Shown here: one piece after another, positions 36,922 through 64,000 of the stretch
Numbering within the stretch: the first letter of the stretch is position 1
Layout of the letters: each line of letters opens with the position of its first letter
NCBI GenBank assembly: GCA_973895155.1
Contig: OZ316891.1
Span: forward strand, 32,251,208-32,315,207
DNA length: 64,000 nt
Reading direction: 5' to 3'
From: Marsupella aquatica
Lineage: Eukaryota; Plantae; Marchantiophyta
Program-made: the position numbers and the translations under genes
Notes under the pieces: model-generated
What the model saw: the letters and a program-made list of their open reading frames with translations, nothing else
Database searches by the model: none
What the model was told of the DNA's origin: nothing

Positions 36922-36934
36922 GGGACAACGTTGC

Positions 36935-38362
36935 ATGAACCCAAGGTACTCCATCTTAGTGAAGGAGGAAATTGACCGTCTCCTCGCCGCAGATTTCATC
37001 TACTCGGTAATGGCTAGCGACTGGGTTTCGCCCAATGTCATGTTACCAAAGAAGGGAGGTACGGAAAGAAAACCTAAGATTTGGATCTATCAAGACTATC
37101 ATAAGTTGAACGACGCAACCCGGAAAGACCATTACCCGTTACCATTCACGAATATGGTTCTAGATATGGTAGCCCGAAACAAAATTTATACATTCCTTGA
37201 CGGGTATTCGGGTTATAATCAAATTTGGATCCGCCTCTTGGATCAGCTCAAAACAATGTTCACTACGGAATGGGGGACATTCGCATTTCGGAGAATGCCG
37301 TTCGGGCTGTGTAACGCCCCGGCCATGTTTCAGCGACTCATGATGAATATCTTCCACGATTTCCTACGGGAATTTCTGGAAATATTTATCGACAACTTTG
37401 CCTTCTTTGGAACCATCGCCATGCACCCCGAACATCTACGACGTACGCTACAACAATGCCGAGAGGTTAACCTCAAGCTTTATCCCGCCAAATATTTTTT
37501 TGGGGTAGAGGAGGGAGTGTTACTTGGGCATCGTGTGTCCAAACGGGGTATCGAGGTGGACCAAGAGAAGGTCGCGGCTTGGATGGCGGTGGTGTTTCCC
37601 GTAGATCAAAAAGCGGTACGATCCTTCTTGGGCTGTGTAGGGTACTATCGTCAGTTCATTAAAGATTTTGCTAAAATTGCATTGCCCTTAACTGAGATGA
37701 TGAAGAAGGACGCGGTAATCAAGGAGACACCCAGGAGACGGATTGCTTTCGAAGAACTCCGTAAACGACTCACCACCGCACCTATCATGGTCACCCCGGA
37801 CTGGAATAAGGAGTTCCATGTGTATGTCGATGTGTCAGGGTTCTGTATCGGGTCCGTACTCAGTCAGCTTGATGAAGATGGACGTGACCACCCCATCTAC
37901 TTTGCTAGCCGTCAACTATTCACAGCCAAAAAAAATTATTCTCCCATTGATCGAGAAGCTCTAGGAATAATCTACTCATGTAAGAAGTTCCGACACTATC
38001 TGCTTGGCTACAAGGTCATATTCCACACGGATCATGATAGCCTGAAGTATATGGTCAACAAAGTGAACGTGACGGGACAGATAGCCCGGTGGGTGCTACT
38101 TCTCCAGGAATTTAACTACAAAGTTTGGGTTTGGCCAGGAAAGGCACATCTCAACGCCAACTTCTTTTCAAGGCTGGACGGCATACCAGTCAATCAACCA
38201 ATTAATGATACTTTTCCGGATGAGGAGTTATTCCACATAGGGGCGGGAACGCCTACGTGGTACGGTTCAATAATCACCTTCCTCTTAACAGGCCGCATCC
38301 CCGACGACATCAATCAGGAGGCCGCCACTGTGTTTTTATGGAAGGCCAGGCCATACTTATGA
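36935..38362 (+). pseudogene. pol: Reverse transcriptase + RNase H
   Basis: WVSP..PKK, DY.KLNDATRKDHYPLP, FLDGYSGYNQI, MPFGLCNAPA.FQR. YxDD is degenerate (FIDN). RNase H motifs VYVDVS..G.VLSQ, REALGIIY, TDHDSLKY. Confidence 0.95.
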
Positions 38363-46100: not shown

Positions 46101-47156
46101 GCTGGCTGGGTGATAGGTGGTGGGGTTTGGCTAGGCTGCGGCTGAGGCTGAGGCTGAGGCTGAGGCTGAAGCTGAGGTTGCATGGGCACGGGTACGGGTA
46201 CGGGCCCGGCTGAGTTGGTCATGTTGGTTGATGGCCGAGTTCCCATGAAGCTCTGCAGGTGCTGGTAGAAGTTCTCCGAAGCGAGTGCGGACGCCCTTGT
46301 CGAACGGTTGGTACTGGACTCGCCGTTAATGACAGCCCGAACCTGGGCAGGGATGTGGTCGAAGTGATGTCGCTGCAGGTCGATTGTACCCGGGATATTG
46401 AAGACCTCGTCCGGAAGCCGAAGCAATGCTTCCCAGAACCCGATATATTTGTCTCCGTTGAAGAAGTACCTAGATACCTCAGCTGGTCGGTAAAGCTCGC
46501 TCTGAGATGGGTAGTCAAAGTTAAGGACGTAGTGGTGTCGTCCTGCTAGGCGGATGGCTCTCTCGTATTCGCGTTCGATCTCGTATCGGCGCGGGTTGGC
46601 GTGTTTCAATGAATCGGCCAAGTGCCTTCCGGTAGATAGGAACTGCGTCCAGAATCGAATGGCCGAGCTGGAGAGGATCGTGTGCGACATTCAGAGGAGA
46701 TAGTAGTGGCGACCTAGAGAGAACGAGAGAGCTGGGGTCGAAGCTGGCGCGCGGACTGATGGACTGGTGCACTACAAAGGGTTGGCTCTCCTTTTATACT
46801 TTGAGGGCTTGTCGATCCCCGACGTCTCCTCGACGCCCATAGGTTGAACCGCTCACGCTTGTGGTGTACCGGCCACTCCGCCGGTCTGAGTCAGCGTGCG
46901 TCAGTGGCCGCTTCCTTAAGTTCGTTATACGGACCCGAGGGAGGGGCCCCTCCACGCTCGTAACCCGGGTGTGCGAATAGCGACCCGCCGCCAGCCCGAA
47001 CCTGAAGTCCCCCTTATTGCCTAATGATGTCCTACCCCTAATGATTACCTAAATACTGTCGTTATGCTAATAATAGCGGCCTAAGACCTACCTAACGCGC
47101 GTGCCGAGCGCAGTTAGACTGAATCACTCATTAACCGCCGTACCGGCGGCGTCACA
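43145..47156 (-). mobile_element. Solo LTR family B (4012 bp)
   Basis: TG..CA termini. TSD GTTCT at 43140-43144 and 47157-47161. Start matches the post-PPT sequence (39566) and end matches the pre-PBS sequence (17959). Confidence 0.95.
44042..46690 (-). CDS. Intact 882-aa LTR-encoded protein (N-terminal helical region, PQ tract, PMD/plant-transposon-like core, Pro-rich linker, coiled coil, basic C-terminus)
   Basis: Uninterrupted ATG-to-TAG ORF in LTR sense orientation. Homologues in four other LTR copies. Confidence 0.88.
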   Translation of the reverse strand: MSHTILSSSAIRFWTQFLSTGRHLADSLKHANPRRYEIEREYERAIRLAGRHHYVLNFDYPSQSELYRPAEVSRYFFNGDKYIGFWEALLRLPDEVFNIPGTIDLQRHHFDHIPAQVRAVINGESSTNRSTRASALASENFYQHLQSFMGTRPSTNMTNSAGPVPVPVPMQPQLQPQPQPQPQPQPSQTPPPITQPAQVCSVINAVDLSDDDEATPPLTRRPRGTSARGADTISSPPPALTPGAALADNMVTVAAPGPLPTAVALPRPDQEDGEVSPSPSQSRGKKRKESATASGLPLATVAVAKVTMHRMGENVHSNILHPKHAVYLKTQGFEHLASLPWNTCRYYGEDMTEFVKNYDDVRQQTRLRGRNMSLTEERLKMIFGLPEGDHRVESRAPGGKGAKYQSSSFPSEGSVDNGFVMRTCLMPEIAERLEFQRYALHMMEPRGEISAAQVIQVKNYRPRKWASYFAKKFHEEMERRRKTLYIGGKAYFASHIEIILEWYARFDRRTLPRINVTKLVPARWVFPALERRPQPEARSPVDTPASPTPPPQIAVIVTEEAPEGSVVATVDATQLAGLSTEVGTAEVLPEPGSPKDPPVAIPENRTSLQEDTPAPSNVMSPGLDVTAPAPARVDVCPCPNPDRHNLDHPELFVQGTFLNGLLGDFSHQIARDTGEFMARKVACFFNQELVAAVKAGRAQSEALQRIERYRVESVYLKNEVAAQEAELLQLRPKVAAADELLAKAYALTALAEQAKAGNEAEITRLRNQIDSLKKQAVTWQKDLEEAEERAQRDATEIATLQVEMARLQTEAEKQDQLAGKLMSDAQQLEEACQEAAEETDAARRENESLLDQVQLLKADNDRLRRQRDGRSHLGSSGKRARH

Positions 47157-48843
47157 GTTCTCCTTCATCTAGAGGATGTAAAGTTGCCCAAACATGATCT
47201 TGTTTATCATGGGATTGACGTATCTTCAATCCCTCTAGTCCATACTCTAATCCAGCTAGTCGATTCAGTCCCACTGCACTGTCTAGTAGAGATCCAAAGT
47301 CATAATTTCTCTCATGGCCACTCATGCCACCTACCTTGCTGAAAAATATCTCACAACAATCTGATCCCAACAAGTGAAATGGAACTTGCAAATATGGGAA
47401 CTTGTCCCGAAAGGCACATGTCACACCATTCTGAGTAGTGTAGTAGTATATCGTGCTATTAGAGTATGTATGTTTGGTATGAGTGCTATTGGAGCCGATA
47501 AGGTTCCGTCAGGTTTGTGTGAGAGGGTACTTCTCACTTGTGAAGCATTGAAAGGTCATCTTTCAATGTTGAGCCTTGGAGAGAGAGGAGCTTGAGTGTG
47601 GCTATGGTGGCTGTGAGCTCCGCTTGTGTAACATGGATTCCTTGAGTAGTGCAAGGTGCGTTGGCTTGACATACGTGTGTGATCGGATCGATGCGGGATT
47701 GATGGGGTATTGTTGACCGGGATCGTTGTGCCGATTGTATTGAGATTACATTGAAAGATCAGATGCAAACTCTGTTGTGCGGACTGTGCAAACAGAAGTT
47801 CATTTTGGATTGATCGAGCTGGTGATGGTTTGTGGAAATCGTTTCAATCTGTTGCGTGGATCCGTGGTATCTCGGATCTCATTGAGTAGATCGTTAGTCC
47901 TTCAATCTGCTGCAGTTTGTGTTGGCGAATGCTATTTTGAGGAAAGAGATCACAGATCATTGAAGATTGCAGATCGCTCATTGTGTCATCGGATCTGGGC
48001 ACATAACGCTGCTGTTGTAGCCGAGTTTGAATGTTGGTTTTCGTGGAGGAAAGCATTCCGCGAATGTTGGCAGATCGTCGGACAGTGGAAGTCATCTGCG
48101 AGGCTTCAGATCTGATTTTCGACTACTGTGATAAGGCACAAGTGAAGCGGCGATCTGCCGATGCTCCGCGCGGTTATGTGGAAGGGCCAATCCGCGCGAA
48201 GTTGCTGCAACTCGCGGATCCGAGCGACAGGGCGCCGACTGCTCGCAGCTGATCCGCAACTCCCGACTGTCCGTCGTTCTGTGAAGGGAAACTGAGAGAC
48301 GGAAATCTGAATGTTGCCGAAACTCGATTCGGTGTAGCGAAGCGTTGCGGGCGTGAAGGGCTCACTCTTTGGCTCATCTCGGCGTTTGAGGCTTCGAGGC
48401 AACTCGTGGCTATTCTGGGCCGTGAGCGCGAGGGGAGGCACGAGGTCGAGCGCGAGGAGGTCACCCATCCCGGGGCTATTCCCAGCCGCAAGCGCTTAAC
48501 TGGCAAGTTCTCATCCCACCTTGTGTACACACAAGCTTTGACAACTTGTTGTTTAGATTCAAGCGCCAGGGGGCTTTATACACTTCCCGGTTTGTTTAGA
48601 GGCCTATTCTAGGCCAAATCAAAGGTTGTTTCAGGGTTTTTGATACTTCTGAGTCCATCTAGACTCACATATTGAACCAATTTTGCCTTGGTTCTCATCT
48701 ACAACATTGGAGTGCCATTGTGAAGCCTATTATGAAGGCTCTTCCTTGAACCTTATGCACATTGTCATATTGATTTGCATTTGCTTTTGTGTGGAGAGTT
48801 GAATGATCAGCCTATTCATTAAAAGTGTATTATTATTTGATTT

Positions 48844-49146
48844 ATGTACATTTGGGCAATGAAAAGTGTACTTTTGGGCTTAGAAAAGTGTACATTTGGG
48901 GATAAAAAAGTGTACAATTGGTCTAAAGAGTGTATATTTGGGCAATGAAAAGTGTACATTTGAGCATCAAAATATGTACATTTGGCTTAAAAAGTGTACA
49001 TTTTAGTACATTTGGCCTAGAAAGTGTACATTTGAGTGAAAAAGGATACATTTGGCTTAAAAAGTGTACATTTCAGTGCATTTAGTCTAGAAAGTGTAGC
49101 TTTGAGTGCAACAAAGAGTACATTTGGCCTAAAAAGTGTACATTTT
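48844..49146 (+). repeat. Left subterminal repeats AAAAGTGTACATTT
   Basis: About a dozen spaced copies. The motif overlaps the inner TIR sequence. Confidence 0.85.
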
Positions 49147-49366
49147 CCTGAAAACTTTTATTGTAATCATTTAAAATAAAGAAATTAATAAAAAATATTT
49201 TTAATTATGCAGAAAAAATAAACATTCATATTCATAATAATCAAAAGTTTAGAAAATGAGTAGATAGTCTACTAAGTAACTAAACACTCAATGGCATGGT
49301 CTCACAATATATATAATTCTTACATAAAAACTAGTAACTATCTAATTATACCTTAGCTAGTGACAA

Positions 49367-52300
49367 CTAAGTGTACTTGTCCATCCTTTGGAGATAACTT
49401 TGGACAGTTTGTAGAACATTTCGAGGAATCTTCAAACCTCTGCCAACCATGTTTTCTTCCTTCATTCCAGATTTAAAACCATACATTGCAGAATTTGCAT
49501 ACTGCCAATGTTGAGTGTTCTCACCAAATCCTGGATCTCGTTCCCATGTCTTGGTGGACATGAAACAATTGAGATACCTAGCACTCTCACTCACATCAAG
49601 TTTAGAGTGTTTAGGCCTCCACCATTCCACGGGGAACATTGGAGCATATTGTTGAGTCAAAGGAGGGTCTCTTGAAGATGCAATTGGGACTTCATGCTTA
49701 GGGTCCACCTGACCCAAAGCTCTCACCAACCAGAAATGACCTCCACCATTTTTCTTCTCCCAATCATCCTCGGGTCGAAGAAACACAAAGTTTCCTTCAC
49801 AAATATCCTGGAGGGGAATCCACCGTCCTTGTTCTCTCTCAGCTCGAGATCCAACAAATGGTGCTGCTTGATCTTCCATCTCTTCCAAGACTTCATTTTG
49901 AAGAGCTGTCATCTCTGCAGTCTCCTCATCTTCACTTAGAGGACCACTCTGTTTGCATGCCGATTGGTTGACCTTGTAACCAGTGCCGTGGTTAGTCTTA
50001 GGCCAAAATCCATTTTTCAATGGAAATTGATTATTTCCCTCCCCTTCCATTGCAAGCCCATTTGACAACAGCTCCACAATTCTTTCCCAATATTTAACAA
50101 GAGGAAATCTTTCCTTGTATGCTATTGAAGTCTCATCAATGCAACTCCTTCTCAAAAAATCAAGGTACTTGTTAAGGAATGGGATTATCTCTTCTGATTT
50201 TTTGTGTATCTCTCCTATGGATTTAGCTAAGGGTTGTCCACTGGGTAAAAGAAGAGAATTTGTTATTGGATCAGTTTCCCAAATGCACCTTCCGCCAACG
50301 GGAGCCCAAGCTTGCTTAACATGGGACTTATACTGAAATATTGGTACATTATCTCTCATAGAGAAAAGAAATGATACCGGTTTTGAGTGACCTTGAATAT
50401 CTTTGACCTTAAAACTTTGAAGATATTCTTTGTAAGATGCAACTTCTTGTATCAATCTTGGAACTGGATGAATGCTCTCACATTCCCAAACCTCTGCCAT
50501 TAGTGCAAGAAGGGTTGCAACTTCCTTGTGCTGAACTTGATATGATACCTTGGAAAATAGTGCATCAACATCTTCGTGCGTATGACCAACCATTAGAAAG
50601 GACATTTGAACAGTTTCAAATATTCCTCTACTCACAAGCTCCGAGCAAAATGCCATGACCGTTTGGTTTTTGTTGTCCTTTGCTGAATTATCCATTTGCA
50701 ATGTTAGGTGCCTTGGCAAGGGCATGAACAACGGACTGCCCTTCTCACCACCCACGTCCCCTCCATCATCCTCATCCTGTCGGGTTGTGATGGTCTCAGT
50801 CTGACTGTCGGTAGCTCCATCTTCAGAACCAATATACCTATTTACTTGAATATTCTTTGGTTCCAAATATCCCGACAAAAATGCATCAAAGTCAAGTAGG
50901 GCTTGAAAGAAAGGTTTGTGAGGTTCCCAATGCAAGCCATCAAGCATGTCACCTGTCTTGTCTCCATTGTACTCTTCAAGATCTCGAAGACATTTAGCCA
51001 AGGATGTCATTGTGAAATCTGCATCTCCTGGCCAAAGGCCAGTGACACTAAAGTGTGCATATACTCCTGGATCTCTCCCGTGGGTCAACATCCCCGTGAG
51101 AGCGATAGGTAGCGACATTCCATGACCCAAAAGTGATTTAGGAGTACTAACCATTTTTGGAATCCATGTCTTTGCTTGATCCATCTTGTCGTGAATAATG
51201 CAAAGATATTCTCCTGGATGTTGCTTGGCCATCACTCGATGAGCGTAGTAAACATATCTACGTGACATTTGCTCACAAAGATGTTGAGCTCTTCTTTCTT
51301 CAATTTCAGCACGTTCTTTTTTCCTTCTCTCTCGCATCAAACTGTCTTTGTATTCACAACAAAGCGTACACTTGGCAAATGCGCCATCCTTGTGAAAACT
51401 GAAGTTTGCAAATGATGTGCTCCATATCTTGTAGAGAGTGTTATCCGTAACAGGAGGAAGCCCTTCTTCCTTCATCTTTGTTCTCACATCTTCCAAAATC
51501 TCTAACTTTTTGTAACACGCTAGAAGTTGATACTCAATGCTGTCTGTCCCATGAGCCCCTCCATAAGGCATATGAGGCATTGGCTCTGCATTTTGAGTCA
51601 AAAATGCCTCTAGAAGAGCTCGCGCATGCAAGGTATTTGACCTTGTTTTCTTCAAGCCTGTGTTCCCATGGAACCCAATTTTGCAACCCTCCATGTATCT
51701 TCTCTTGTAATCATAATACTTGGTGTGACTAAAACCATGGATGGTTGCAAATGCATCTTTACAGATGACCATACCTTTGAGAACATGGTGTCCCTTATCA
51801 CGAACATCATCCTCTCTGTAGTGGAAGAGGTTGAAAATGTGTGATGTTTTGGACTCGCTAGACATCCCATGAAATTCCATCCTAACATCTTCTATATCTT
51901 CCCTTGGCATAATGAGACAACATTTATGCTTGCAGCAATTTACTCTTTTGATCTCATCGATTGCGGCTTCTATTGTTTTTGAAACTGCCTTGGTTTGCAA
52001 GAGCCTCCTTTTCTTCTCAACAGGATCAACTTGATTCCTCTTGTTGAAGTTATATGGCCTTTGACGACATCCGGATACGGATCCAACCACATGATCCGGA
52101 TTCAGATCATCCCTATCCATTGACTCCATATTCTCTGTACCTTCTACCAGAATGTCTGACAAAAATTTTCCAGTTGCTACTAGTTTTGTGTGATCAATTC
52201 GCCACCGAACCAAACTAATTACTCCCTTGTTAATGCTTGGAAAGTATTGCGATTCCATGACATCTTTCACAGCAACCCCTACATAGTCTTCTCCCAAGAT

Positions 52301-53158
52301 TTCATCATCAACAGCCGCCGTTGCTTGAGGCATAGTGATAGTCCCAGTGGCAACCTTACTCGATCGTTCTGAACCAATGTATAATTCGACCAACTCTGAC
52401 ATCCAGTTGGACCATTGGTAATAATCAGAATGAGTTTTGGTCGATTTTGTTGATGGAGAATGTGAGACAAAACTCTCCTCAATTAAAACGTCGCCATCAC
52501 CTTGCTTCTTAGAGGAAGACTTTCTACCTTCATCAACATTCCAACCTTTTTTATGAACATCGGCCAAGTCCCAGAGAACCCATGAGTCTTTTGCCTCTTC
52601 AATTGTTTCAGCCCCATTGTGTATGTAAGGTAAAGCCTTACTACCATGAATAACATCAGTGATTTTCACACTGATCCGAGACTCACCAAGAAATATGTTG
52701 TGACATCGGTCCTTTGGATTTACCTTGAAAATAACTCCAAGGGCTACACAACACCCATCAATGAGCATTTCAACCTCGTCCCCTTGCCTTAGAGTGTTTG
52801 ATGCATCCTCCATAACAATTGTAGGAGATTTATCCAAGTTATTATCTGGTCGAGTTGAACAACTACCAGTACTGATGCGTTTTGGGGAATCTAGAGTTAT
52901 AGAGAGATAGGCGCACGAGATCTCCCAAATAACACATGAGTCAATGGCATCGAAAAGATTTTCTACCCTTGGTAGTGGAAATGGTAGTTTTTGAGTTGGC
53001 TCAAAAACCTTCTCCACGAGCACACCAATTCGATTATCTCCCAACAATATGTTGTGCACCCTATCCTGGGGGTTAATTTTCTGAAGTGTCCCATAACCGA
53101 CATCATATCCATCAATTGTCAAGGTCACATCATCACCTCTTGAAAACCTTCCAGTCAT
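49367..53158 (-). CDS. Sola-like DDD transposase, intact (ATG 53158; ORF open from 53182)
   Basis: FAKCTLC CxxC..H motif. Candidate catalytic Asp motifs IIHDKMDQ, LQMDNSAKDNKN and FLMVGHTHEDVDALFS. Three N-terminal ~75-aa repeats and a C-terminal beta-rich domain. Confidence 0.88.
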   Translation of the reverse strand: MTGRFSRGDDVTLTIDGYDVGYGTLQKINPQDRVHNILLGDNRIGVLVEKVFEPTQKLPFPLPRVENLFDAIDSCVIWEISCAYLSITLDSPKRISTGSCSTRPDNNLDKSPTIVMEDASNTLRQGDEVEMLIDGCCVALGVIFKVNPKDRCHNIFLGESRISVKITDVIHGSKALPYIHNGAETIEEAKDSWVLWDLADVHKKGWNVDEGRKSSSKKQGDGDVLIEESFVSHSPSTKSTKTHSDYYQWSNWMSELVELYIGSERSSKVATGTITMPQATAAVDDEILGEDYVGVAVKDVMESQYFPSINKGVISLVRWRIDHTKLVATGKFLSDILVEGTENMESMDRDDLNPDHVVGSVSGCRQRPYNFNKRNQVDPVEKKRRLLQTKAVSKTIEAAIDEIKRVNCCKHKCCLIMPREDIEDVRMEFHGMSSESKTSHIFNLFHYREDDVRDKGHHVLKGMVICKDAFATIHGFSHTKYYDYKRRYMEGCKIGFHGNTGLKKTRSNTLHARALLEAFLTQNAEPMPHMPYGGAHGTDSIEYQLLACYKKLEILEDVRTKMKEEGLPPVTDNTLYKIWSTSFANFSFHKDGAFAKCTLCCEYKDSLMRERRKKERAEIEERRAQHLCEQMSRRYVYYAHRVMAKQHPGEYLCIIHDKMDQAKTWIPKMVSTPKSLLGHGMSLPIALTGMLTHGRDPGVYAHFSVTGLWPGDADFTMTSLAKCLRDLEEYNGDKTGDMLDGLHWEPHKPFFQALLDFDAFLSGYLEPKNIQVNRYIGSEDGATDSQTETITTRQDEDDGGDVGGEKGSPLFMPLPRHLTLQMDNSAKDNKNQTVMAFCSELVSRGIFETVQMSFLMVGHTHEDVDALFSKVSYQVQHKEVATLLALMAEVWECESIHPVPRLIQEVASYKEYLQSFKVKDIQGHSKPVSFLFSMRDNVPIFQYKSHVKQAWAPVGGRCIWETDPITNSLLLPSGQPLAKSIGEIHKKSEEIIPFLNKYLDFLRRSCIDETSIAYKERFPLVKYWERIVELLSNGLAMEGEGNNQFPLKNGFWPKTNHGTGYKVNQSACKQSGPLSEDEETAEMTALQNEVLEEMEDQAAPFVGSRAEREQGRWIPLQDICEGNFVFLRPEDDWEKKNGGGHFWLVRALGQVDPKHEVPIASSRDPPLTQQYAPMFPVEWWRPKHSKLDVSESARYLNCFMSTKTWERDPGFGENTQHWQYANSAMYGFKSGMKEENMVGRGLKIPRNVLQTVQSYLQRMDKYT

Positions 53159-53295
53159 TCTCGGATTTAGTAACCTGCACAATTTTCAGAAAAACCATCA
53201 CAAATCCGAATGACAAGAATTTGAAGAGACTCACAATTATCCATACGGTCATTTGATTGCCATTCCGCGAATCCAAACGTTGGCTCAACTATCAC

Positions 53296-54432
53296 ACTTG
53301 GATTGGGGTGGTCCAAATCAAAACCACAAAGATTGTATTCCGAAGGTCAAATTTAAGCATCTCGCTTGAATTGGGATCGTCCGAATCCAAACCAACCTCT
53401 ATCCAACACACCCTCTTGGATTTGGATGGTCCGAATCCAAACCCAGATGGGATCCCAAAGGTCCCAATTCAACAAACGCGCTTGGATTGGGATGGTCCGA
53501 ATCCAAACCCAGATTTTATTTCAAAGGTCCCAATTTAAGCACCGGGCTTGGATTCGGATGGTCTGAATCCAACACCAGATTGTATTTCAAAGGTCCGAAT
53601 TCAACCCACCATCTTGGATCCGAATCCAAACACAGATTCTATCCCAAAGGTTACAATTCAACAAACCGGCTTGGATTGGGATGGTCCGAATCCAAACCCA
53701 GATAGTACTTCAAAGGTCCCAATTTAAGCATTGGGCTTGGATTCGGATGGTCCGAATCCAAAACCAGATTGTATTCCAAAGGTCCGAATCCAACCCACCA
53801 TCTTGGATTCGGATGGTTCGAATCCAAACACAGATTCTATCCCGAAAGGTCCCAATTCAACAAACCGGCTTGGATTGGGATGGTCCGAATCCAAACCCAG
53901 ATTGTATTTCAAAGGTCCCAATTTAAGCATCGGGCTTGGATTTGGATGGTCCGAATCCAAAACCAGATTGTATTTCAAAGGTCCGAATCCAACCCACCAT
54001 CTTGGATTCGGATGGTCCGAATCCAAACACAGATTCTATCCCGAAGGTCCCAATTCAACAAACCCTCTTGGATTGGGATGGTGCGCGAATCCAAACCCAG
54101 ATTGTATTTCAAAGGTCCCAATTTAAGTATCGGGCTTGGATTCGGATGGTCCGAATCCAAAACCAGGTTGTATTTCAAACGCCCAAATTCAATCATCTCG
54201 CTTGGATTGGGATGGTCCAAATCCAAACCGAGATTGGATCCCAAAGGTCACAATTTAAGCATTGCACGCTTGGATTCGGATGGTCCGAATCCAACACACC
54301 CAAGATTGGATTCTGATCAGATGGTCCCAATCCTACAAAATGGATTGGATTCGGATCATCCGAATCCAAACAACAATCTAGGATTAGGACCATTATAATC
54401 CACACATCAAGTCTGGATTCAGATGGTCTAAC
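53296..54432. repeat. Array 1 of palindrome TTGGATTCGGA-TGG-TCCGAATCCAA (~66-bp monomers, ~198-bp trimers)
   Basis: About 17-19 copies. Higher-order period visible at 53671, 53870 and 54068. Lies in a putative minus-strand intron (GT at 54637, AG at 53175). Confidence 0.93.
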
Positions 54433-54902
54433 TCCACAATGAAGATTATGTTGAGATGGATATATTGAGATTGAGATCTCTTCCTAATCAAATTTAGACA
54501 TTCCGGGTTTTTTGGAACATTGGGTAATTCGTGAAATAATAATTGGGAAGTCACTAGAATGCAGAACAAAGTGAAAGGTAAACCCTAAACTTCCCTAAGA
54601 ACTCAAAATAAGCAAAGCGACTAAGACCATAACTCACCTCAGCAGTCTTGTTTTTCCAGTATGTCTCCAAGGTTGGCTCTGCTACCTCTAAATTGATGAA
54701 TAAGTTCATATCAAACTGACTAAGAAAGCTATCAAAGCCACTTCAAGTCTAAACTCCATCAGAGAGAAGAGCTGAGGAGGAGTTGCGCAGACCTGGATGC
54801 CCAAGTGAAGATATGAAACTAAAACAACAATGATGTCCGTAGAGTACCTCTTATACTCGTGGGTTGGTATGTTCGGCCCTGAATGTGCAATCCGATAAGG
54901 TT

Positions 54903-55012
54903 GAGGCAACACCGAGTATCGCGGTTAGAACAATCATCCAATCCTTTTTCAATCCATTGTGTCAGACAAAGGATTGGATGATTGTTCTAACCGCGATACT
55001 CGGTGTTGCCTC
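54903..55012. other. Perfect 45-bp inverted repeat with 20-bp loop between divergent genes
   Basis: 54903-54947 is the exact reverse complement of 54968-55012. Confidence 0.95.
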
Positions 55013-55393
55013 CCAAACTGATAGGACCAGATCCCTTCTTGGTCTCTATCCGTACAGAGATCATCCGTACAGAGATGATCCGTGTAGCGATCATCCGTAC
55101 GCAAACAAGCCTTTCAGGAGGGGGTAAAGGGATGACAAGGTCTTCCATAGACCTCATTGTTGTTTCGCTCTCTGTCGCTCCTCACTGTCGCTCCTCACTC
55201 TCGCTCCTCACTCTCGCTCCTCACTCTCGCTCTAGCTCCTCATTCTCACTCCTTGCTCTCGCTCTTGGCTTGCTGCCGCCGCTATCCCTTGCCCTTGCCC
55301 TAATTGCCTTCTTGCCCTAATCTGTTGCAACGCCCTAGATCTTGCCCATCTTGACGTGTCCTCAATATATCCTGCCACGTGTCACTCCTAAAA

Positions 55394-58300
55394 ATGGAAG
55401 TTGCCAAGAAAACTGTCATTGTCCTGCTCGCCGAAGAATCTGATGACTTGGATCTCTCCTCTGTCGGTGATCTTGTGGCCCTAGCGCTTGGGGATTCCCA
55501 AGAATTTCAATCACAAGTCCAAAGTAAGTTTCCAGAGGTTTATTCATGCATCTTAAGTTGTTGGATTCGGATGGTCCGAATCCAAGAGGGTTGTTTGGAT
55601 TCGGACCATCCGAATCCAAGTGGGTTGTTTGGATTTGGATGGTCCGAATCCAAGTGGCTTGATTGGATTCGGATGGTCCGAATCCAAGTGGCTTGATTGG
55701 ATTCGGATGGTCCGAATCCAAGAGGGTTGTTTGGATTCGGACCATCCGAATCCAATGGGTTGTTTGGATTTGGATGGTCTGAATCCAAGTGGCTTGATTG
55801 GATTCGGATGGTCCGAATCCAAGTGGCTTGATTGGATTTGGATGGTCCGAATCCAAGAGGGTTGTTTGGATTCGGACCATCCGAATCCAAGTGGGTTGTT
55901 TGGATTCGGATGGTCCGAATCCAAGTGGCTTGATTGGATTCGGATGGTCTGAATCTAAGAGGGTTGTTTGGATTCGGACCATCCGAATCCAAGTGGGTTG
56001 TTTGGATTCGGACCATCCGAATCCAAGTGGGCTTCTTGTATTGGATTTGGATGGTCCGAATCCAAGAGCCCTCAATCTCACTTTGACAGTGATTTCTTAA
56101 AACAAATTTCATGGATTTAAAGTCTAATATGAATTTTCACTCTCCAATGCAGAGAGTGATCTGGTGAATACAACTCTCGCCATTTCAGAGGCAGACTGCG
56201 ACGATGGGTTCATTTTGGAGGACCGCGATCCAGGATTTCAGTGGGGACTTGAGTTCTCGCGAGTAAACTTCCGCCTAAATTCATTTAACATTCAGGATCC
56301 AGTGTTATGTGTCAAGATCAGGACAGGCAACAACCAAACATTGGTCATCGGACCCGTGGTCTCTGTGGGAATGATAGGAAGAGGAATGAATTCTATCATT
56401 GTAGAGGTGTCGGACACGATGAGGTGGGCAAAGTTGCAGCTCCCGTCAAAGGCTTTCTCGGCCGAGTTCAATGTGGAATGGTATGCAAGTGGGGAATTAA
56501 GTGTGTTGTCGATGGGATTCTTTCCAAAATCCTACACAAAGGAGAAGATTATTGGAGGACTGAAGGGAATGCTTCCTTTGGACATTTTTTATGGGTTTCT
56601 TTATTTGAAACTCAACATTGTAAACAACCCATCAAAGTTCTCTCTTCCATCCACATGGACTCTTAACAATTTGCTTCAGAAAGCAGGTCTGGTGTCACCA
56701 GACTCAAATGTTTGGATCACCAAGGCACTAGCCTTTGCACACACGCTTGACCTGGAAAAAGCAAATCTATGGGTAGAGTCTTTGGTGAAGTTGAGGAAAA
56801 GTACACAACCACAGAACATAATTGAGTCTACGCCAGCCAAAGGAACTCCAGCAACTACGACGGAGATAGCACAAACTACTGCAGCAACAACCATGGATAG
56901 AGCGGCAGGGAAGCGGAAGTAGAGGGAGAAGAAGCTTCCGGTTGAGAAACCTACTTCAGTTGAGAAGAAGATCACGGCTCCAGCCGAGAAGAAGAAGCTT
57001 CCAGCCGAGAAGAAGTCGAGGGAGAAGAAGAAACAAAAAACCAACACCGGAGTTGTGAATTCAACTCCTGTAGATTTTTCATTACATGCTGAAGATGAGG
57101 GTGATAGGCCACATGCTCCAGAGGAGAAAGACGTCTTAGAAGGGAATGAAGTTCTTCAACAAATGGAGCAGTACTATACTTTTGGGATAAACGAAATTTT
57201 TCTGATCCCAGTTGAAAGTATTTTTGCCGCACCAGCGAGACTATGCTATCGGATGATGAATTTTGATCATGTGCAAGACATTGTTGATTCCATGATCAAA
57301 ACACCTGGGCATGAGCCACATGTCGCTGATTTGATTCCTTTTAATGTCGAGCGAAGAAAGGTACTCCACTTTGAGAATACGGAGTCGGACCGGAAGGATT
57401 TTTTGGCCAGAGTGAAAAAGGGCGAGGTCCAATTTCTAGCAGTTAGTGGTCAGCACTCTGCGAGAACTGCGAGATGGATTCATGATTGGGCAACGAAGGA
57501 TGCCAAGCTCACCCAGTTGGCCAAGAAGTTAGAATTCAGGAAATCCAGAATATTGTCTAATCGCACACCGTCTTCAATTCTTGTTGAGCACTCCATGAGA
57601 TCGAACGCCATCAATAGCACGATGGTGTTTCAGTCTTGCTTTAAAGATACAGTTGTCCATGCGAGGCGGCAGTTTGTTGAATGTGGAAATCCAGACAAAC
57701 CAAAACATGGCGACAACAAAACAAATGCTCAAGACAACCAAAAATTTCAGGTAAGAAATGTGATTACTTTGTATGCATTTCTCTACCATAGAGAGTAATT
57801 CTATTTTGGATTCGGATGGTCTCAGTCCGACACAATTTGTCAAAGAGTATTGGAACTTTTGGAATGTTTAGTACAAGTTTTGTTTTTGATTGAGACCATC
57901 AGAATCCAAAACTATTATCGCACATTAGAATCCTTTTTTTCCAACCCTTGAGTTGGGGATAACTGACTAGCTTTCCTTTTGGATTGTAGGATTGGTTGGC
58001 TCTGGCAAGAATGACTATGGGCAGGAAGGACTTGCGAAATGTATATTGGCTACTTTTTGCGGACAATGATCTTTTTGAGTTGTGGCGGTTAGTCTGTGAG
58101 ATGTGGTTGCATGGGAAACTTCCTAATGGAGCTGGGATGGAAGGAAATAACAAGTCCAAAAAAGCAATTACCGTTGCCATGTTTCGTCCCTTTGATGGTG
58201 AGTTGATCTCACAGAAAGACATCACAAAAATCCTGACACAAGTGAAGTCAAGAAAGGCATTGCTGAAGAAAGATGCCACTAATAAATCTGACATACCCTC

Positions 58301-61300
58301 AATAGAGGAGCTTGCGAAGGATGTGAAAAAAGTGAGGAAGCTCAAGTCTCTCATTGAAGAGTACTACTTCGGCAAGGATCCAAGGAATTTCCCTTCGGAT
58401 ACCGACTGGAAGAAAGTTGTAGAGGTTCTGCCATTGTTGAGTGTTGATGCAGAATTCAGTAGATGCAGAAGAGCGGCTGGTGAAGTTTTTTTGTCAAATC
58501 TGTTGAAGCCAAATCATACTAGGGAGAGTGCAATCTTGCCAATAGCTCTGGTGATGCGCCTTGATGACATTTATTGCCAGAAGTTTGGCGGAGGGACACA
58601 TTCTCGGAGCCAACCGTGGGTCACGTTCTTTAGTGACAATCTAATGAAAACAGTTGATCCACCAGCAATAGAAGAATCATCTCCAACGTGCTCACTTGCC
58701 ATTGTTGACTTCAGTCAAGATCACCAGAAGCTGTGGACGGAAGTAGAAGTTTTGGTCTTTCTGCAATACATTGTGGAGCTACCACGAAATCTTACAATCG
58801 TTGTAGCCATAACTGTTCATCCGGGGCCTCTTGCAATGAATGTCCTAAGCTCACTTCGAAAATTGGGACAAGAGAAATCTCTCACGATTCACATTGAGTA
58901 TGGGAGTTATTCTCGAGAGGATCAACCACACCCGCTTGATTCGTGTTGGGGAGGCGGAATTGAAGAAGTTATATTTGCAGGAATTTCTCGAGATGAAAAT
59001 GTCAATTGGAATGATGTTTTCAAACCCAATCACCCAAAGCCAAAATTCTTTTTTGGTTCAAAAGATACTGATTTTGAGGTCACCAAGATTGACACTGGGA
59101 AGGCAAAGGTTGACACAGACGACGTGTCAAAACCCGAAGATCTAAAAATGATGCTGACCCCAGAAGAGGCGACCAAGGTTTTGCACATGGCCCCTTGATT
59201 GAGATAGTTGGTGCTCGTGGTGGTTGGGTGAATCCACATGCCAAACCCACGCGGATGATACAGAGGATTATTGAATCCTTGTCAGAAGCTGGAGACTTGA
59301 TTCTTGATTTTTTCTCGGGTGGTCAAGTGATGAAGACATCATTCTTGGTGCAACGCGAATGCTTTGTTTATTGTGACTCTCAAGATGAGAGACACTTTGT
59401 GGAAGCGTATGCTTCATTCCTTTGCGAGAGGGTCCCCTCAATCAAGGAAAATTGGGATCCTCGTGGTGGGAGTTCTAGGCATTGGAAACCCACTATTGCG
59501 GATGTTTCTGCCAAACATGAATCAGCTGATAATTCCGAAGAAGTGAGCGCTAAGTCAGTCAAAGATGATGGGGAATCAGAGGTGGCGTATGCAAAGAATT
59601 TGGATGACCGTGTAGGTCAAAGTGAAAGCATAGAACCCTACGATGTTGATGATAACATTGGTCTTGCACCACGCCCTTCATCAGGTGCAGATGACGTCCC
59701 TTTGGAACCCTATGAAGTTGAGGTTGATGACAACTTGGACAAGGATGGTCTCAATCCAAATGTGGTGCAACGAGAAACGGACGGAATTGGTGATCCAATT
59801 GACATTGATACATTTGAAAATCATTCGTCAACCAATTTGGTCGTGGACGGTGGAGACAGACAGGTCAATTCGAATGAAGCTGACACCCAAAATTTGATTC
59901 CCGGGACGGCTATCGAAGTACGTGAGATTCCCATGACCCCAAAAGCCCGTGCATCAGCGACTATTGACAACCAGGCAGGTGCTTCAATTTGTCCTGACAC
60001 ACTCTTTTCAGCTTCTGATGACAAATTGGTTTTTGTTCGTTCACACTCGGGAAGTCCAGTTGTCCTTCCTTTCTCAAAGAAAAAAGGGAATAGAGTTGGA
60101 TCAAGCGGATGGAGGTCACTTGAACGTGATGCACGATGTTATGTGTGGAAAAGTGGGCCAAATAGAGGCCAAGAAGTTTCATTGGATGCTGCTCCATCGA
60201 TTCTTAACAGGAAGGAGTATAAGAGAGGAGAATTGGGATTGATAACTCCTGTTTGGACGTCACCTTATTGGGTAGAACAAAGTACTTCAGATGTCAACTT
60301 TGAAATCCAAGAGGAGCTGGGTGTTGACATTATTGATGAATACGGATCTCTTTTTTCAGACTGAGATCAAACCGTCTGACTTTCCATTTTTTCATACCAA
60401 TCTAAAATACTTCTCGGTCTCACAGAATGCGGTCAGCAATTAGAGCCTCGATATCCACCTACGCTCTTTGGGGCTTCTAAAAATGGTATGTAGGTTTTCT
60501 TTGTTGTTAGTCATTGTCTTGTATTTTTGGACTGAGATTGTCTCAGTCCAAAGTTCAAATTTGGTTTTCTTTCTAAGAGTTGTATTTGTTGCACTTGCAG
60601 AATCGAGACCTTGTCCCATCAAGCGGAAGTTGCTGATTTTGGATCTTAACAAAATACTTTGGGATTCACTTGAATTCCAAAGCAAGGGCAAATCCAGAAA
60701 CATTGTGACCCCAAATGGAGTGCATTGGGATAGATCAAATGGAACTAGTCGCATGTATACAGAGAGGCCAGGGTTCCATGAGTTTCTAAAGTTGGTTTTT
60801 GACCGGTTTGACGTTGCAATTTGGACATGTGCTGGGATGCCGCGGACAGTGAAAATGTTGAACATGATGTTCACTGTTGAGGAGCGGTTGAAACTGAAGT
60901 TTGTATTCACACAGGTGGAAGCCTTTGACACAGGCATTCAAAGGCGTGACATTACAAATGGAAAGGCAAATGTGCTATTGAAGGATTTTCGGGTGGTATG
61001 GAGTGCATTTGGAAATCTATATGATGAAACCAACACACTCCTTGTGGATGACTCCCCCTTGAAGGCATTTGCCAACCTAGACATGACCGGACTATTTCCA
61101 GTGCCCTACACGCATGCCAATCGTGGAGACAATTTTCTTCTAACAATTCTTTGGCCATGTCTTGAGAAACTGTCACATGCAAGTGACATTCGTTGTTATC
61201 TTCTCCTAAACTCTCCAAAGTGGTCTCTATTGCACATTAAGAGAGACAAGGCAAAAAATGAGATTACTTATGATCAACTTAGTAAGAGATGTGCAGCAAA

Positions 61301-61637
61301 AATTTGGAAGTCACAGTATAGGCATAGTGTGCTGGACCTCAATAGCAATGAGATTCCTTGGGCTGTGAAGCACCGTATATGTAGCTTACGTCCTGAGGTG
61401 GAACTTGACGATGCACTTGTCACCTCACTTACTAGATCATTTGTAGGACGGGAATATTCAGGTTTGTATAGAGAAAATCCCAGACACTTTTTGCGGGAGA
61501 TTATAGCAGTTAGGAACAACACCACCAAATTTCATCTCCCTGAAGATAAAGGGAGTTGCAACCGTGACATTAGGGTAGATAGTAAAGGAGACAAGGGCAC
61601 GTGCTCAAATAAATATTGTAAGGAGCACTTTGTTTAG
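55394..61637 (+). pseudogene. Spliced cargo gene: ParB/Srx-like + beta-class N6A/N4C DNA methyltransferase-like + FCP1/NIF HAD phosphatase-like (~1750 aa reconstructed)
   Basis: Exons 55394-55523, 56153-57750, 57990-60485 and 60601-61637 are joined by GT-AG introns that keep frame. Lesions: TAG 56920, frameshift between 59114 and 59195, TGA 60362 and TGA 60377. Motifs: YRMMNFDHVQDIVDSM..FLAVSGQHS..SN (ParB-like); NPHAKPTRMIQRIIESLSEAGDLILDFFSGG (MTase motifs X/I); LLILDLNKIL, RPGFHEFL, VAIWT, NTLLVDDSPLK (NIF). Confidence 0.75.
55561..56065. repeat. Array 2 of the same 25-bp palindrome (34-bp period, ~15 copies)
   Basis: Copies at 55561, 55595, 55629, 55663, 55697... with recurring 9-bp spacers. 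Entirely inside intron 55524-56152. Confidence 0.95.
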
Positions 61638-61896
61638 AGATCTGACTCATGTTAAGCCCATTAGATTGTAAAAATGGGTGCCAGCCCTGGATATTCATCG
61701 TAAGTTTGGACACAATTGTATATAATTATTTCACACATTATCAATCAATGGTCCTTGCCTAGGCTTCTTTGTGCGTAAATGTTTTTACAAGTATGATCTC
61801 TATCCCATGGTTCTTTGTGAACTAATAAGTAATATAATACTATTATAATTAATATAATATAATATAATAATATAATACTAATAAGATTTGGCCTAT

Positions 61897-61976
61897 AAAG
61901 TGTACATTTAGGTATCAAAAAGTGTACATTTGGGCTTCTTAAAGTGTACATTTGGGGACATAAAAGTGTACATTTC
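61897..61976 (+). repeat. Right subterminal repeats AAAGTGTACATTT (4 copies)
   Basis: Same motif as the left end. Confidence 0.85.
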
Positions 61977-62267
61977 AGGACTGATTTGTGAACAAAAGAA
62001 AATACACTTTTAATGAATAGGCTGATAATGGTATCCATTCTTGTTTCTGGATCCTCTTCACACATGTTTCCTATTTATGCGCCATGTTAGTTTGGTGTGG
62101 GCATTTGATTCCATAAGAATGATCCGGGTTTGCAACCGGACATTCTAGTTGTGCTGCGTATTTCTCTCCCGGTGATGTTGGAGTGATGCCCAACACACCA
62201 TGGTGAGTGCTTGTGGTGCTGACAGGGATAGATTGCCCTTAGGGTTAGCACATAGATTAGGTTAGGG

Positions 62268-63905
62268 TTGGTCACCACGGATTCTTCTGGTGCTGCTGGA
62301 TTACCCAATGGACGACGGACCAGTTTCACTCGGAGTGGGGCACAGTTTCGGCCAACGGCATTGGTAGCAGTCAATAGTGCAGCTTCAGACAGTGATTCTG
62401 ATGAGGACTCAGTGACCAGTTCTCCTCGTCATCAGGTGGTTGCACCTTTGTTGTGGGATATGGACGAGATGTACGGGGCTACAAAGGGCCCACGACGATA
62501 CTCTGGTGCAGTTGGCACAATTGATCTGGATGACTTCATCCAGGAGTTTGATACGTGGTGCGATATGCAGACATTGCATAACGCCACGTTGTTTACCCCT
62601 TTCATGGCATGGAAGGGATTATTTCAGCATTTGGAGGGGCCACCCATGGATGACTACCATGAGTTTCGGAAGGCTCATTTGGTTGAGATTGAGGCATGGA
62701 GGCAGCATTGGTCACCTAATTATGTGTCCATCACCTATGGCACTAGTGCGGCTGCCCAACCCATTGCCACAGCTGTTGCCTCTTCTAGCAGCACTAGCCA
62801 GAGTGGCACACCATCCACCAGCAGCACTCCAGCAGCATCCACCGCTACTCCTGCCGGTGTGATTGTGACAGGAACTGGAGTTGCGCCAGCATTTAATCCT
62901 GTGGTGGAATTCTTTGAGGTACTGAAGCAGAACTATCAGGGTGTGAGAACTGATAAGTTGAAGGGTCTCCAGGAGTTCCACCGCAAGACTGGAGAGAGTC
63001 TACGTGAGGCATACACTCGTATGCACAGATTGATCACTGTCACCAAGGGAGTGATAGAGGCTCAAGCAGTCCAGTTTTGGTATGCAATTTTGGATAGAGA
63101 ATTGCGACGTAGAGTGAGAGATGTCACTCTGCTTAGGGATGCAGATCCCACATTAGCAGTTGTTTTCACCCTTTCTGAGCGCATTGAGCTCAATATGGTG
63201 AATGAGAAGGTGGTGACTTCTGGATTTACCAAGGAAGCACCAAAGGCTGCATCTACATCCACACCACAGCCTACTGCATGGAAGAGCCAGAGGGAGAAGC
63301 CTACTGCACGAGAGTCTACCAGCCAGAGACCTGTGCCCTCTTATGCTGGACAGCAGTCAGGATGTTGCACCTGTGGTGGGGATCATGCACGGAGATATTG
63401 TCCAGATCATAGAGGATCAGGGGGAGCATCAGCGCCTGATCAGCGACAGTGTGATCACTGTGGAGCTCCTGGACACACCAAGGATAGGTGTTTCTCACTC
63501 CATCCTGAGTTACGGAGAGGAGGATCCCGTACACATGATCAGGGAAGAGGAGGAGGAGGTAGAGGGGGTGGACGTGGTCGTGGCATGCCACATGCAGGGA
63601 GACAGGGAGGTAACGCTGCCCCTGCTGTAACCATAGATCCAAAGGATGCTAAGATTGCTCAATTGGAGCAACAACTAGTTGCCATGGCTAGTTCCCAAGT
63701 GAGACCTACTTCTGGTGATGGGGCATCTACATCCTATGGACCTTCCACATCCCATGGTCCTTCCACATCTTATGGAGCTGATGGAGATCTTGCCACCATG
63801 GGATTCATGTCTGGCACTGCACATATTGATGCATCAGCAACTTTAACACGTGGGGTAGCCAAAGCTCTTGAGCCCCGAGGAGCAGTAGTGGAGCTAGATC
63901 CATAG
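62268..63905 (+). CDS. gag: Gag-like protein of another LTR retrotransposon
   Basis: RYSG..DLDDFIQEFDTWC, RKTGESLREAYTRM, knuckles CTCGGDHARRYC and CDHCGAPGHTKDRC, RGG-rich tract. The frame continues past the TAG to the window end. Confidence 0.8.
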   Translation: MVTTDSSGAAGLPNGRRTSFTRSGAQFRPTALVAVNSAASDSDSDEDSVTSSPRHQVVAPLLWDMDEMYGATKGPRRYSGAVGTIDLDDFIQEFDTWCDMQTLHNATLFTPFMAWKGLFQHLEGPPMDDYHEFRKAHLVEIEAWRQHWSPNYVSITYGTSAAAQPIATAVASSSSTSQSGTPSTSSTPAASTATPAGVIVTGTGVAPAFNPVVEFFEVLKQNYQGVRTDKLKGLQEFHRKTGESLREAYTRMHRLITVTKGVIEAQAVQFWYAILDRELRRRVRDVTLLRDADPTLAVVFTLSERIELNMVNEKVVTSGFTKEAPKAASTSTPQPTAWKSQREKPTARESTSQRPVPSYAGQQSGCCTCGGDHARRYCPDHRGSGGASAPDQRQCDHCGAPGHTKDRCFSLHPELRRGGSRTHDQGRGGGGRGGGRGRGMPHAGRQGGNAAPAVTIDPKDAKIAQLEQQLVAMASSQVRPTSGDGASTSYGPSTSHGPSTSYGADGDLATMGFMSGTAHIDASATLTRGVAKALEPRGAVVELDP

Positions 63906-64000
63906 AGGGGGGATGCACGTCAGACAAAGCTTCCTCAGTCTTTTACATTGTCAGAGACAGTTCACACTGCCTCTATGAACCCTGTTCGGACAAACCCTGA

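Follow-up and report, generated by a model that had tools for sequence, protein, structure and literature searches.

A putative DndB-like ParB/Srx domain, followed by a degenerate methylase-like domain, in an accessory gene of a liverwort DNA transposon

A 64,000-nucleotide (nt) stretch of the liverwort Marsupella aquatica (assembly GCA_973895155.1, contig OZ316891.1, positions 32,251,208 to 32,315,207 of the forward strand), hereafter the window, contains a transposon with a large accessory gene. Within the predicted accessory protein lies a domain which very probably adopts the fold of the ParB/sulfiredoxin (Srx) superfamily. Judged by profile comparison it is probably closest to the DGQHR/DndB branch, and it lies outside Pfam family PF14072 by Pfam's own rule. 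A residue central to nucleotide binding in this fold, the arginine of the DGQHR motif, is missing in all relatives in which the motif was found. On balance, we favour the view that the domain is a DndB-branch ParB/Srx module of a transposon accessory protein, likely DNA-binding or regulatory, and not a canonical CTP- or ATP-hydrolysing ParB. All coordinates are positions of the window; residues are numbered along the translation of 57139-57750.

Fold and nearest family of the domain

The predicted protein consists of an N-terminal domain, a Lys-rich linker, the ParB/DndB-like domain, a helical region, a degenerate methylase-like domain and an acidic tail. A first-pass annotation, made from the letters of the window, had described a ParB/Srx-like domain at 57055-57750. 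The domain stands, but as one part of a larger protein that is both ParB-like and methylase-like. The peptides quoted for it (IFLIPVESIFAAPARLCYRMMNFDHVQDIVDSMIKTPG, FLAVSGQHSARTARWI, KSRILS and LVEHSMRSN) occur exactly in frame 1 of the plus strand, which is open over 56923-57798, and the translation of 57139-57750 reads as it was given there. Position 57750 is a real exon end, since a GT donor follows at 57751, an AG precedes 57990 and the resulting junction (KFQ/DW to 57990) is reproduced in two predicted proteins of the liverwort Calypogeia fissa (P0008, P0014). The proposed start, in contrast, falls into the Lys-rich linker; the fold begins at about 57199. The parts of the gene are as follows.

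56128-56919, plus strand: N-terminal domain of the accessory protein; it matches no known family, is common to relatives P0002-P0007, and no ATG opens the frame
56920-56922, plus strand: in-frame TAG inside the Lys-rich linker (56128-56922 and 56923-57798 are the same frame)
56923-57198, plus strand: Lys-rich linker of low complexity, seen in the sequence; part of it is absent from some copies
57199-57750, plus strand: predicted ParB/Srx-fold domain of DndB type, delimited by relatives, alignment, predicted model, fold searches and profile comparison
57445-57459, plus strand: SGQHS motif (GQHS at 57448-57459)
57592-57606, plus strand: S..N motif within the ParB/Srx-fold domain
57751-57989, plus strand: GT..AG intron of 239 nt, the splice junction being matched by P0008 and P0014
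57990-59195, plus strand: exon 2 with the helical middle region and the first half of the methylase-like domain, continuing as in the C. fissa proteins
about 58701-58721, plus strand: AIVDFSQ, presumed place of methylase motif IV, positioned by eye and by a low-confidence hhalign row
59196-59200, plus strand: two lesions, a TGA at 59196-59198 and one T missing behind 59198
59201-60364, plus strand: second half of the methylase-like domain (NPHAKP, LILDFFSGGQ) and acidic tail, assigned by PF01555 and by phage and prokaryotic relatives

The structure of the domain was predicted with AlphaFold2 based on a 71-row alignment, which comprises the window and 70 relatives chosen for good coverage of the domain. 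The resulting model has a predicted local distance difference test score (pLDDT) of 93.8 and a predicted template modelling score of 0.88. An earlier model built from 17 close sequences (pLDDT 49.7) was discarded; its Foldseek matches were noise. Searching PDB with Foldseek, ranks 1-41 (34 rows listed) are occupied by Noc, PadC, sulfiredoxin (human and Arabidopsis), ParB, KorB, SbnI, Atu1540 and SerK. Noc 7ol9_B leads the list (E 2.5e-3, prob 0.99), which also includes Arabidopsis sulfiredoxin 6ky4. VIA-align, which is independent of Foldseek, was applied to 48,161 representative chains and returned 19 of them at Z>=2. The top eight all have the ParB/Srx fold: Pnob8 ParB-N (Z 7.6), PadC (7.3), KorB (7.2), SerK (6.8), SbnI (5.6), Arabidopsis Srx (5.4), Atu1540 (5.1) and human Srx (4.5). 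The next row is unrelated (Z 3.1), and further members of the ParB superfamily appear lower down (SspE, Osa, Spo0J, a DndB-containing entry and BrxU). In BFVD (best E 2.4e-4) the named rows are nearly all ParB/Spo0J, ParB-like nuclease or ParB/sulfiredoxin, besides a few DNA methylases.

The ParB/Srx fold had already been proposed by the first-pass annotation, and the top matches in PDB, among the 48,161 chains and in BFVD all belong to it. The outcome named there as a refutation, closest structures of some other fold, did not occur. We draw the conclusion from the near-exclusive ParB/Srx content of these three lists, because the single scores are middling. Indeed, all Z values stay below 8 (middling by the tool's own scale), all Foldseek E-values against PDB exceed 1e-3, and PDB sequence searches with the domain (phmmer, hmmsearch) gave no meaningful match. 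These results count against the assignment. If the resemblance were due to chance or a generic alpha/beta match and the domain had another fold, low scores of this kind would be expected, as well as the failure of the shallow first model (pLDDT 49.7) to match anything. Such an explanation is nevertheless highly improbable, since two aligners and three libraries place almost only ParB/Srx at the top, and since none of 270 shuffles equals an independent profile-profile match to DndB, in which the three conserved motifs line up in register. In the PDB sequence searches, rhinovirus VP1 (E 0.003) and Lys-rich ribosomal proteins also appeared and were judged to be chance or compositional matches.

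The ParB N-terminal pattern recognised in the first-pass annotation holds for the fold, but not for the corresponding profile: ParB_N (PF02195) matched none of 17 family members at E<=10. The Pfam profile of DndB (PF14072) matched four of the 17 at E 0.005-0.05, in one register covering about positions 11-128 of 338. For a more sensitive comparison, the family was aligned by hhalign with 26 DndB-family proteins (from 23 of 401 proteobacterial genomes), with 30 canonical ParB/Noc proteins and with 10 ParB_N-N6_N4 methylase fusions of Bacillota. The match to DndB has a P of 7.8e-5 when 16 family sequences are used and of 1.1e-5 to 8.9e-6 for 71 sequences, with a probability of 82-83% in the latter case and of 62-83% overall. 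Family columns 9-117 are placed on DndB columns 18-125, whereby YR.lN..HV..I is paired with QR.l...Ri..I, SGQHS with DGQHR and S...N with F.diN of DndB. The observed score was reached by none of 150 column shuffles in one set (maximum 22.1 vs 37.8) and by none of 120 in another (17.8 vs 43.9). Canonical ParB/Noc proteins aligned in a plausible register at P 0.019; as a yardstick, DndB itself aligns with canonical ParB at P 0.15. The profile search that had been suggested for this domain is thus negative for ParB_N, while DndB is found by sub-threshold Pfam matches and at an hhalign P of about 1e-5.

Several results speak against the superfamily placement or the DndB affinity. The best PF14072 score is 16.4 bits, compared to a cut-off of 29.1. 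ParB_N gave no match in 51 further relatives at E<=0.01 either, and the hhalign comparison with the 10 bacterial ParB_N-methylase fusions is not significant (P 0.16, 0.38). A HMMER profile of the domain found dndB in none of five dndB-bearing genomes, and scans of the 17 members with NCBIfam and PADLOC gave no relevant match. Moreover, the DndB-containing entry 9jfl_A reaches only Z 2.4 in VIA-align, so that the nearness to DndB is drawn from profile comparison and not from structure.

Other searches contributed little. A PHROGs scan of the 17 members gave nothing consistent, and a plasmid tblastn with the domain gave three matches at E 5-9, none of them ParB-like. A scan of viral contigs with the family alignment led to 31 pattern matches and no relatives. 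The helix-turn-helix (HTH) and C-terminal dimerisation domains of partition ParBs were not detected in the Pfam scans. The nearest ESM Atlas clusters of 57139-57750 are fungal hypothetical proteins, some of them with DUF3723 (score 0.93-0.94); Pfam DUF3723 has no match at E<=10 in the domain family. DUF3723 is a conserved accessory gene of the Starship giant transposons with a function listed as unknown (available part of PMC9156397). Should a ParB-like domain be present in DUF3723 as well, this module would be common to two kinds of eukaryotic cargo transposon that are not related to each other.

The protein family, its GQHS motif and its methylase-like partner

Word-based searches with the domain found 16 close relatives with 50-59% identity, the named ones being entries called 'unnamed protein product' from C. 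fissa. The trimmed-domain profile was scored against 1.84 billion representative proteins, which resulted in 123 matches at E<=1e-3, 77 at E<=1e-10 and 34 at E<=1e-30. Two of the 123 (P0089, P0117) are apparently spurious, namely repeat and DNase II proteins with scattered weak stretches. Given the 16 close relatives and the 123 profile matches, the observation is far beyond chance. The family comprises at least 120 cluster representatives, many of the database relatives being fragments; it has no Pfam family, and its members are named 'hypothetical protein'. Organism names were obtained for eight of 20 representatives looked up, seven being from the liverwort Riccia sorocarpa and one from the lycophyte Diphasiastrum complanatum. 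The named sources overall are two liverworts and one lycophyte.

Across the 71 aligned rows H106 never varies, and P67, G104, Q105, A110, S152 and N156 show a conservation of 90% or more. The GxH and the terminal N pointed out by the first-pass annotation hence form a true family signature. The identity falls to 16-20% between members, and the same residues stay conserved. Two divergent members from R. sorocarpa (P0095, P0070) start with MARWKQTARK.. and MARWKQTARR.., respectively, a start that the window copy does not have. It resembles the N-terminal tail of histone H3 (ARTKQTARK), a tail that these transposon proteins could be mimicking.

The motif was examined in 133 family sequences and a motif string was found in 93 of them. 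The strings are SGQHS (63), NGQHS (6), DGQHS (5), NGQHT (3), DGQHT (2) and a few others. The residue behind GQH is S in 81 cases, T in 5, L in 4 and K, C or M in one each. The arginine that binds phosphate in this fold (GxxR, Box II or P-motif) is found at this place in none of the 89 relatives with the motif. The earlier remark that GxHR appears as GQHS was therefore right, and describes a trait of the whole family. Compared to DGQHR, the H is invariant, G and Q are kept in at least 90%, the position of D is mostly S (D in 7) and R never occurs. In ParB-fold proteins the Box II arginine is needed for binding of nucleoside triphosphates (NTPs), and its exchange for alanine abolishes binding (available part of PMC12704722). 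Because the P-motif arginine is missing here and is required there, an altered nucleotide chemistry, that is altered, weak or lost NTP binding or hydrolysis, is a fair prediction by analogy.

The C-terminal part of the protein resembles DNA methylases. Pfam N6_N4_Mtase (PF01555) matches the window with E 1.2e-5 and 25.8 bits, slightly below the cut-off of 26.7, and the match covers only the last quarter of the profile (the motif I end). Phage searches with the methylase-like frame gave 79 records; the 15 listed all fall under genes annotated as DNA methylases. In prokaryotes 109 relatives were found, and N6_N4_Mtase is present in 42 of 42 scanned. The same arrangement recurs in Riccia, where P0066 (R. 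sorocarpa KAL3695087.1), P0093, P0090 and P0101 all carry the same motif I behind the ParB-like domain; P0066 and P0093 also show weak PF01555 matches. The four C-terminal halves align with 12 small N6_N4 methylases at an hhalign probability of 90.4% (P 1.4e-6). At the level of predicted sequences, the window and no fewer than four Riccia proteins demonstrably join a ParB-like domain to one that is N6/N4-methylase-like. Descent from a ParB-methylase fusion does not follow from this, because a ParB domain is absent from all 42 prokaryotic methylases that were scanned, which also weighs against our overall view, and because the comparison with the 10 bacterial fusions was not significant.

Motif I is kept (LDFFSGG), together with a preceding NPHAKP which is similar to HPxxKP. 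Motif IV, (D/N/S)PP(Y/F/W), is absent; its presumed place reads hhhhD[FL]xx in all seven members visible there. It corresponds to AIVDFSQ in the window, AIVDFSR in P0018 and P0019, and VFADFAR, VFVDLAR, VIADLIA and VFADLTS in Riccia proteins. Exon 2 alone does not align significantly with the ParB-methylase fusions (hhalign P 0.6), so the placement of motif IV is provisional.

The protein might be an active DNA methyltransferase that is guided by the ParB-like module and sets N6-methyladenine or N4-methylcytosine marks on the element to escape or exploit the chromatin control of the host. Such a function would be in line with the architecture common to the window and the Riccia proteins and with the conserved motif I and NPHAKP. 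It would also have precedents, as liverworts use the prokaryote-derived N4-cytosine methylases MpDN4MT1a/b (available part of bioRxiv 10.1101/2021.02.12.428880) and eukaryotic retrotransposons co-opted prokaryotic adenine methylases (available part of bioRxiv 10.64898/2026.05.21.726589). However, MpDN4MT1 contains TSPPY, according to the accessible text of the former source, whereas no PP[YF] occurs at the provisional motif IV of the seven members, and the PF01555 score of the window remains below the cut-off. We therefore regard an active methyltransferase as unlikely.

The window copy of the accessory gene is a pseudogene, as it contains the TAG at 56920, the TGA at 59196 and the loss of one nucleotide behind 59198. 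Contigs of related copies have an extra T behind 59198 in all three runs with depth at this place. For the TGA, a contig end of X3 (loose end 59199) reads C instead of T, resulting in CGA. Exon 2 is thus continuous with the methylase-like frame in other copies, the two being read as a single open frame. The frame change within 59114-59198 had also been considered as a frameshift or as a 95-nt intron; both were ruled out by the other copies, and it is a lesion of the window copy. Apart from these lesions a deletion variant of the linker exists, in which 56939-57185 (247 bases) are absent and 56938 is joined to 57186 with one T in between (X1, X2, X4).

The transposon and the proposed role of the accessory protein

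The gene lies in an element of 13,221 bp (48806-62026), which we call with high confidence a cut-and-paste transposon with terminal inverted repeats (TIRs) and a 4-bp target duplication. Its features outside the accessory gene are listed below.

48802-48805 and 62027-62030, no strand: target-site duplication AATG, seen in the sequence and in empty-site contigs
48806-48831, plus strand: left TIR, 26 nt, ATCAGCCTATTCATTAAAAGTGTATT, identical in 26 of 26 positions to the reverse complement of 62001-62026
48844-49127, plus strand: left subterminal array of a 22-bp unit with GTGTACATTTGG, nine sites by count
49367-53185, minus strand: open frame of 1272 amino acids with DUF7869 (PF25273, E 1.6e-43)
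53368-56063, no strand: palindrome arrays with about 30 copies of GGATTCGGA-TGG-TCCGAATCC (45 strand matches vs 0 expected)
60444-61637, plus strand: NIF/FCP1-like open frame, resembling phosphatases of the C-terminal domain (CTD) of RNA polymerase II (PF03031, E 2.4e-14), either a separate gene or a further exon
61900-61975, plus strand: right subterminal array with the same 22-bp unit as at the left end, by site count
62001-62026, minus strand: right TIR, the perfect partner of the left one

The call is based on the 26-nt TIRs, the AATG duplication and an empty-site joint. In two of two runs (X2 and X4), contigs join 48801 to 62027 and skip 13,225 bases, whereby four letters fit both sides. 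The location in a plant transposon, as given by the first-pass annotation, is thereby borne out. Contigs that are 90-99% alike cover all bins, which indicates a multi-copy element in at least two organisms.

One might suppose that the accessory gene is captured or decaying cargo without any role for the element, or a member of a host gene family in repeat-rich DNA. The three lesions of the window copy and the fragmentary state of many database relatives would suit this idea. On the other hand, the family is large and diverse, and the conservation of the same residues down to 16-20% identity implies long purifying selection. In addition, divergent Riccia paralogues have retained the domain fusion, and the gene sits within the TIRs of a discrete multi-copy element. 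We consider both possibilities, cargo without a role and host gene family, very unlikely.

Between the divergent transposase-like and ParB-like genes, and exactly there, two palindrome arrays are located. They are inverted relative to each other (53368-54367 and 55563-56063) and have units of 66 and 34 bp. The 21-nt palindrome GGATTCGGATGGTCCGAATCC consists of 9-nt arms and a 3-nt spacer; one degenerate copy is found outside of the arrays, in the intron (57808-57828). These palindromes are candidate protein-binding sites. The subterminal arrays account for all sites of GTGTACATTTGG in the window, 12 compared to 0.18 expected, which fall into 48844-49127 or 61900-61955.

Based on the analogy to DndB and to phage ParB-methylase fusions, and on the palindrome arrays between two promoters, the ParB-like domain may serve an accessory protein, distinct from the transposase, as its module for DNA binding or regulation. 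For this specific role we see somewhat less than even chances. DndB is described as a ParB-superfamily, ATP-dependent negative regulator, an ATP-modulated DNA-binding repressor of its own operon (available part of PMC10853773). A DndB-like protein binds ATP and GTP, and fusions of the ParB fold to N6_N4 methylases are frequent in phages (both in the available part of PMC12704722). By analogy, the domain would bind DNA of its own element, the candidate sites being either the approximately 30 palindromic 21-mers in the region that separates the divergent genes or the 22-bp units near the ends. Loss of the arginine would leave NTP binding and hydrolysis weak or altered. The methylase-like domain, having kept the S-adenosylmethionine (SAM) loop LDFFSGG but carrying D[FL]xx for DPPY, could bind SAM or DNA without ordinary amino-methyl transfer. 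As both the arginine and PP[YF] are lost, it is suggestive that two formerly enzymatic modules were turned into binding modules. The protein would then regulate or shield the element, by expression control or anti-silencing, and would not be a transposase.

A bolder version is ParB-type, centromere-like control, in which the arginine-less ParB and the pseudo-methylase load on the approximately 30 21-mers and gate transcription or block DNA methylation of the element by the host. We think this improbable. If true, a regulator of DNA modification from bacteria or phages would have been rebuilt as a eukaryotic anti-silencing device, and some Riccia paralogues would combine the control module with an N-terminus similar to the histone H3 tail (MARWKQTAR...).

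The domain could also take part in transposition, either as an enzyme (nuclease or NTPase acting on DNA of the element) or as a clamp which is loaded on the palindromes and tethers or partitions excised copies. Nucleases and NTPases do occur in the ParB/Srx superfamily (available part of PMC10853773), the motif residues G, Q and H vary hardly or not at all, and the array of about 30 palindromes beside the gene is reminiscent of parS or centromere-like repeats beside parB. Yet the P-motif arginine is missing throughout the 89 relatives, and neither the HTH nor the C-terminal dimerisation domain of partition ParBs was detected. Furthermore, eukaryotic cut-and-paste elements need no partition system, and this element already has a transposase-like open reading frame (ORF). 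A part in transposition or partition is hence doubtful, and a DNA-binding or regulatory module remains the reading we prefer.

Four known systems are worth a comparison. DndB/DGQHR proteins (PF14072), regulators of bacterial DNA phosphorothioation, give the best profile match and share the order of motifs: (Q/Y)R...helix, then xGQHx, then a conserved Asn about 50 residues on. Like the plant domain, DndB accompanies a module of DNA-modification type. In the plant family, however, the R of DGQHR is S or T and the D mostly S or N, and only the N-terminal ~110-160 positions align. Also, the plant gene is without dndCDE partners, in a eukaryotic host and borne by a transposon.

Fusions of ParB_N with N6_N4 methylases in phages and prophages likewise have a ParB-fold domain first and a beta-class N6/N4-methylase-like domain last, and are located on mobile elements. 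They differ in being about 420 amino acids long with canonical GxxR and DPPY, whereas the plant protein lacks the arginine and PP[YF] and is far longer due to the extra N-terminal domain, the Lys-rich linker, a helical insert of ~230 amino acids and the acidic tail. Their ParB-like parts are without profile match to the plant domain (the P of 0.16 and 0.38 given above).

Sulfiredoxin is a stand-alone enzyme of about 100 amino acids with the catalytic Cys and the Arg of GGCHR. The plant domain shares its fold (Arabidopsis Srx 6ky4: Z 5.4 over 87 aligned residues, 20% identity) and the His of G-x-H. It has Gln at the position of the Cys and Ser at that of the Arg, contains extra helices and is part of a multi-domain transposon protein. 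In the structure searches, Arabidopsis Srx was the only land-plant protein with the ParB/Srx fold. To our knowledge, sulfiredoxin is essentially the only form of this fold known so far from land plants.

The closest functional analogy may be the VANC anti-silencing proteins of the Arabidopsis VANDAL elements. VANC is an accessory protein distinct from the transposase, and short tandem motifs are found in the non-coding DNA of its elements (available parts of PMC5735166 and PMC10398659). According to the available part of PMC10398659, VANC proteins bind motifs located in non-coding parts of the elements that encode them. The likeness is one of function only, and binding of the liverwort accessory protein to its own repeats is conjecture.

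The fold, the type of fusion and prokaryote-type methylases in eukaryotic mobile elements are already known. ParB-type HTH domains fused to Dam-like methylases are mentioned for chlorophytes and chytrids in the available part of PMC4738411. What appears to be new is a DndB-like branch that is borne by a DNA transposon of land plants, the family-wide loss of the key arginine, the pseudo-methylase as partner and the unannotated family as such. Our literature searches found no description of this plant transposon family; the supplements of a survey of the ParB fold (PMC12704722, available in part) may list eukaryotic members. Taken together, a large, diverse and unannotated family unites a DndB-like ParB domain with a degenerate prokaryote-type methylase on a liverwort DNA transposon, with a relative in a lycophyte. 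This would add a eukaryotic, transposon-borne branch to a superfamily studied as a general NTP switch, and offer a natural variant without P-motif arginine for probing the fold without its canonical nucleotide chemistry. In liverworts, which already employ an N4-cytosine methylase of prokaryotic origin, it also gives a candidate regulator or anti-silencing factor, encoded by a transposon, that can be put to the test.

Other genes and surroundings of the element

The DUF7869 frame is presumably the transposase of the element, as read from its context and motifs. It contains a cysteine cluster of CCxxxC type and a ..MVGHTHEDVDALF.. stretch. PDB sequences gave no match to this frame, and no description of DUF7869 was found in a literature search. 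The NIF/FCP1-like frame shows a contig depth several-fold above that of the ParB-like gene. Such a depth could mean that further elements, present in greater number, carry it too.

The transposon is inserted into a much more abundant repeat, with a depth of 5-30 thousand in the flanks compared to 0.2-2 thousand inside. This host repeat (44001-48800 and 62030-64000) carries a coiled-coil ORF of 882 amino acids (44042-46690, minus strand) and an ORF of 549 amino acids (62256-63905). Other contigs join 48367 to 62150 or 48757 to 62048, which indicates that the host repeat varies around the insertion site. Elsewhere in the window, at 156-914 and 36818-38362, retrotransposon remains are found, consisting of a gag-like frame and a frame for reverse transcriptase and RNase H (RVT_1, RT_RNaseH).

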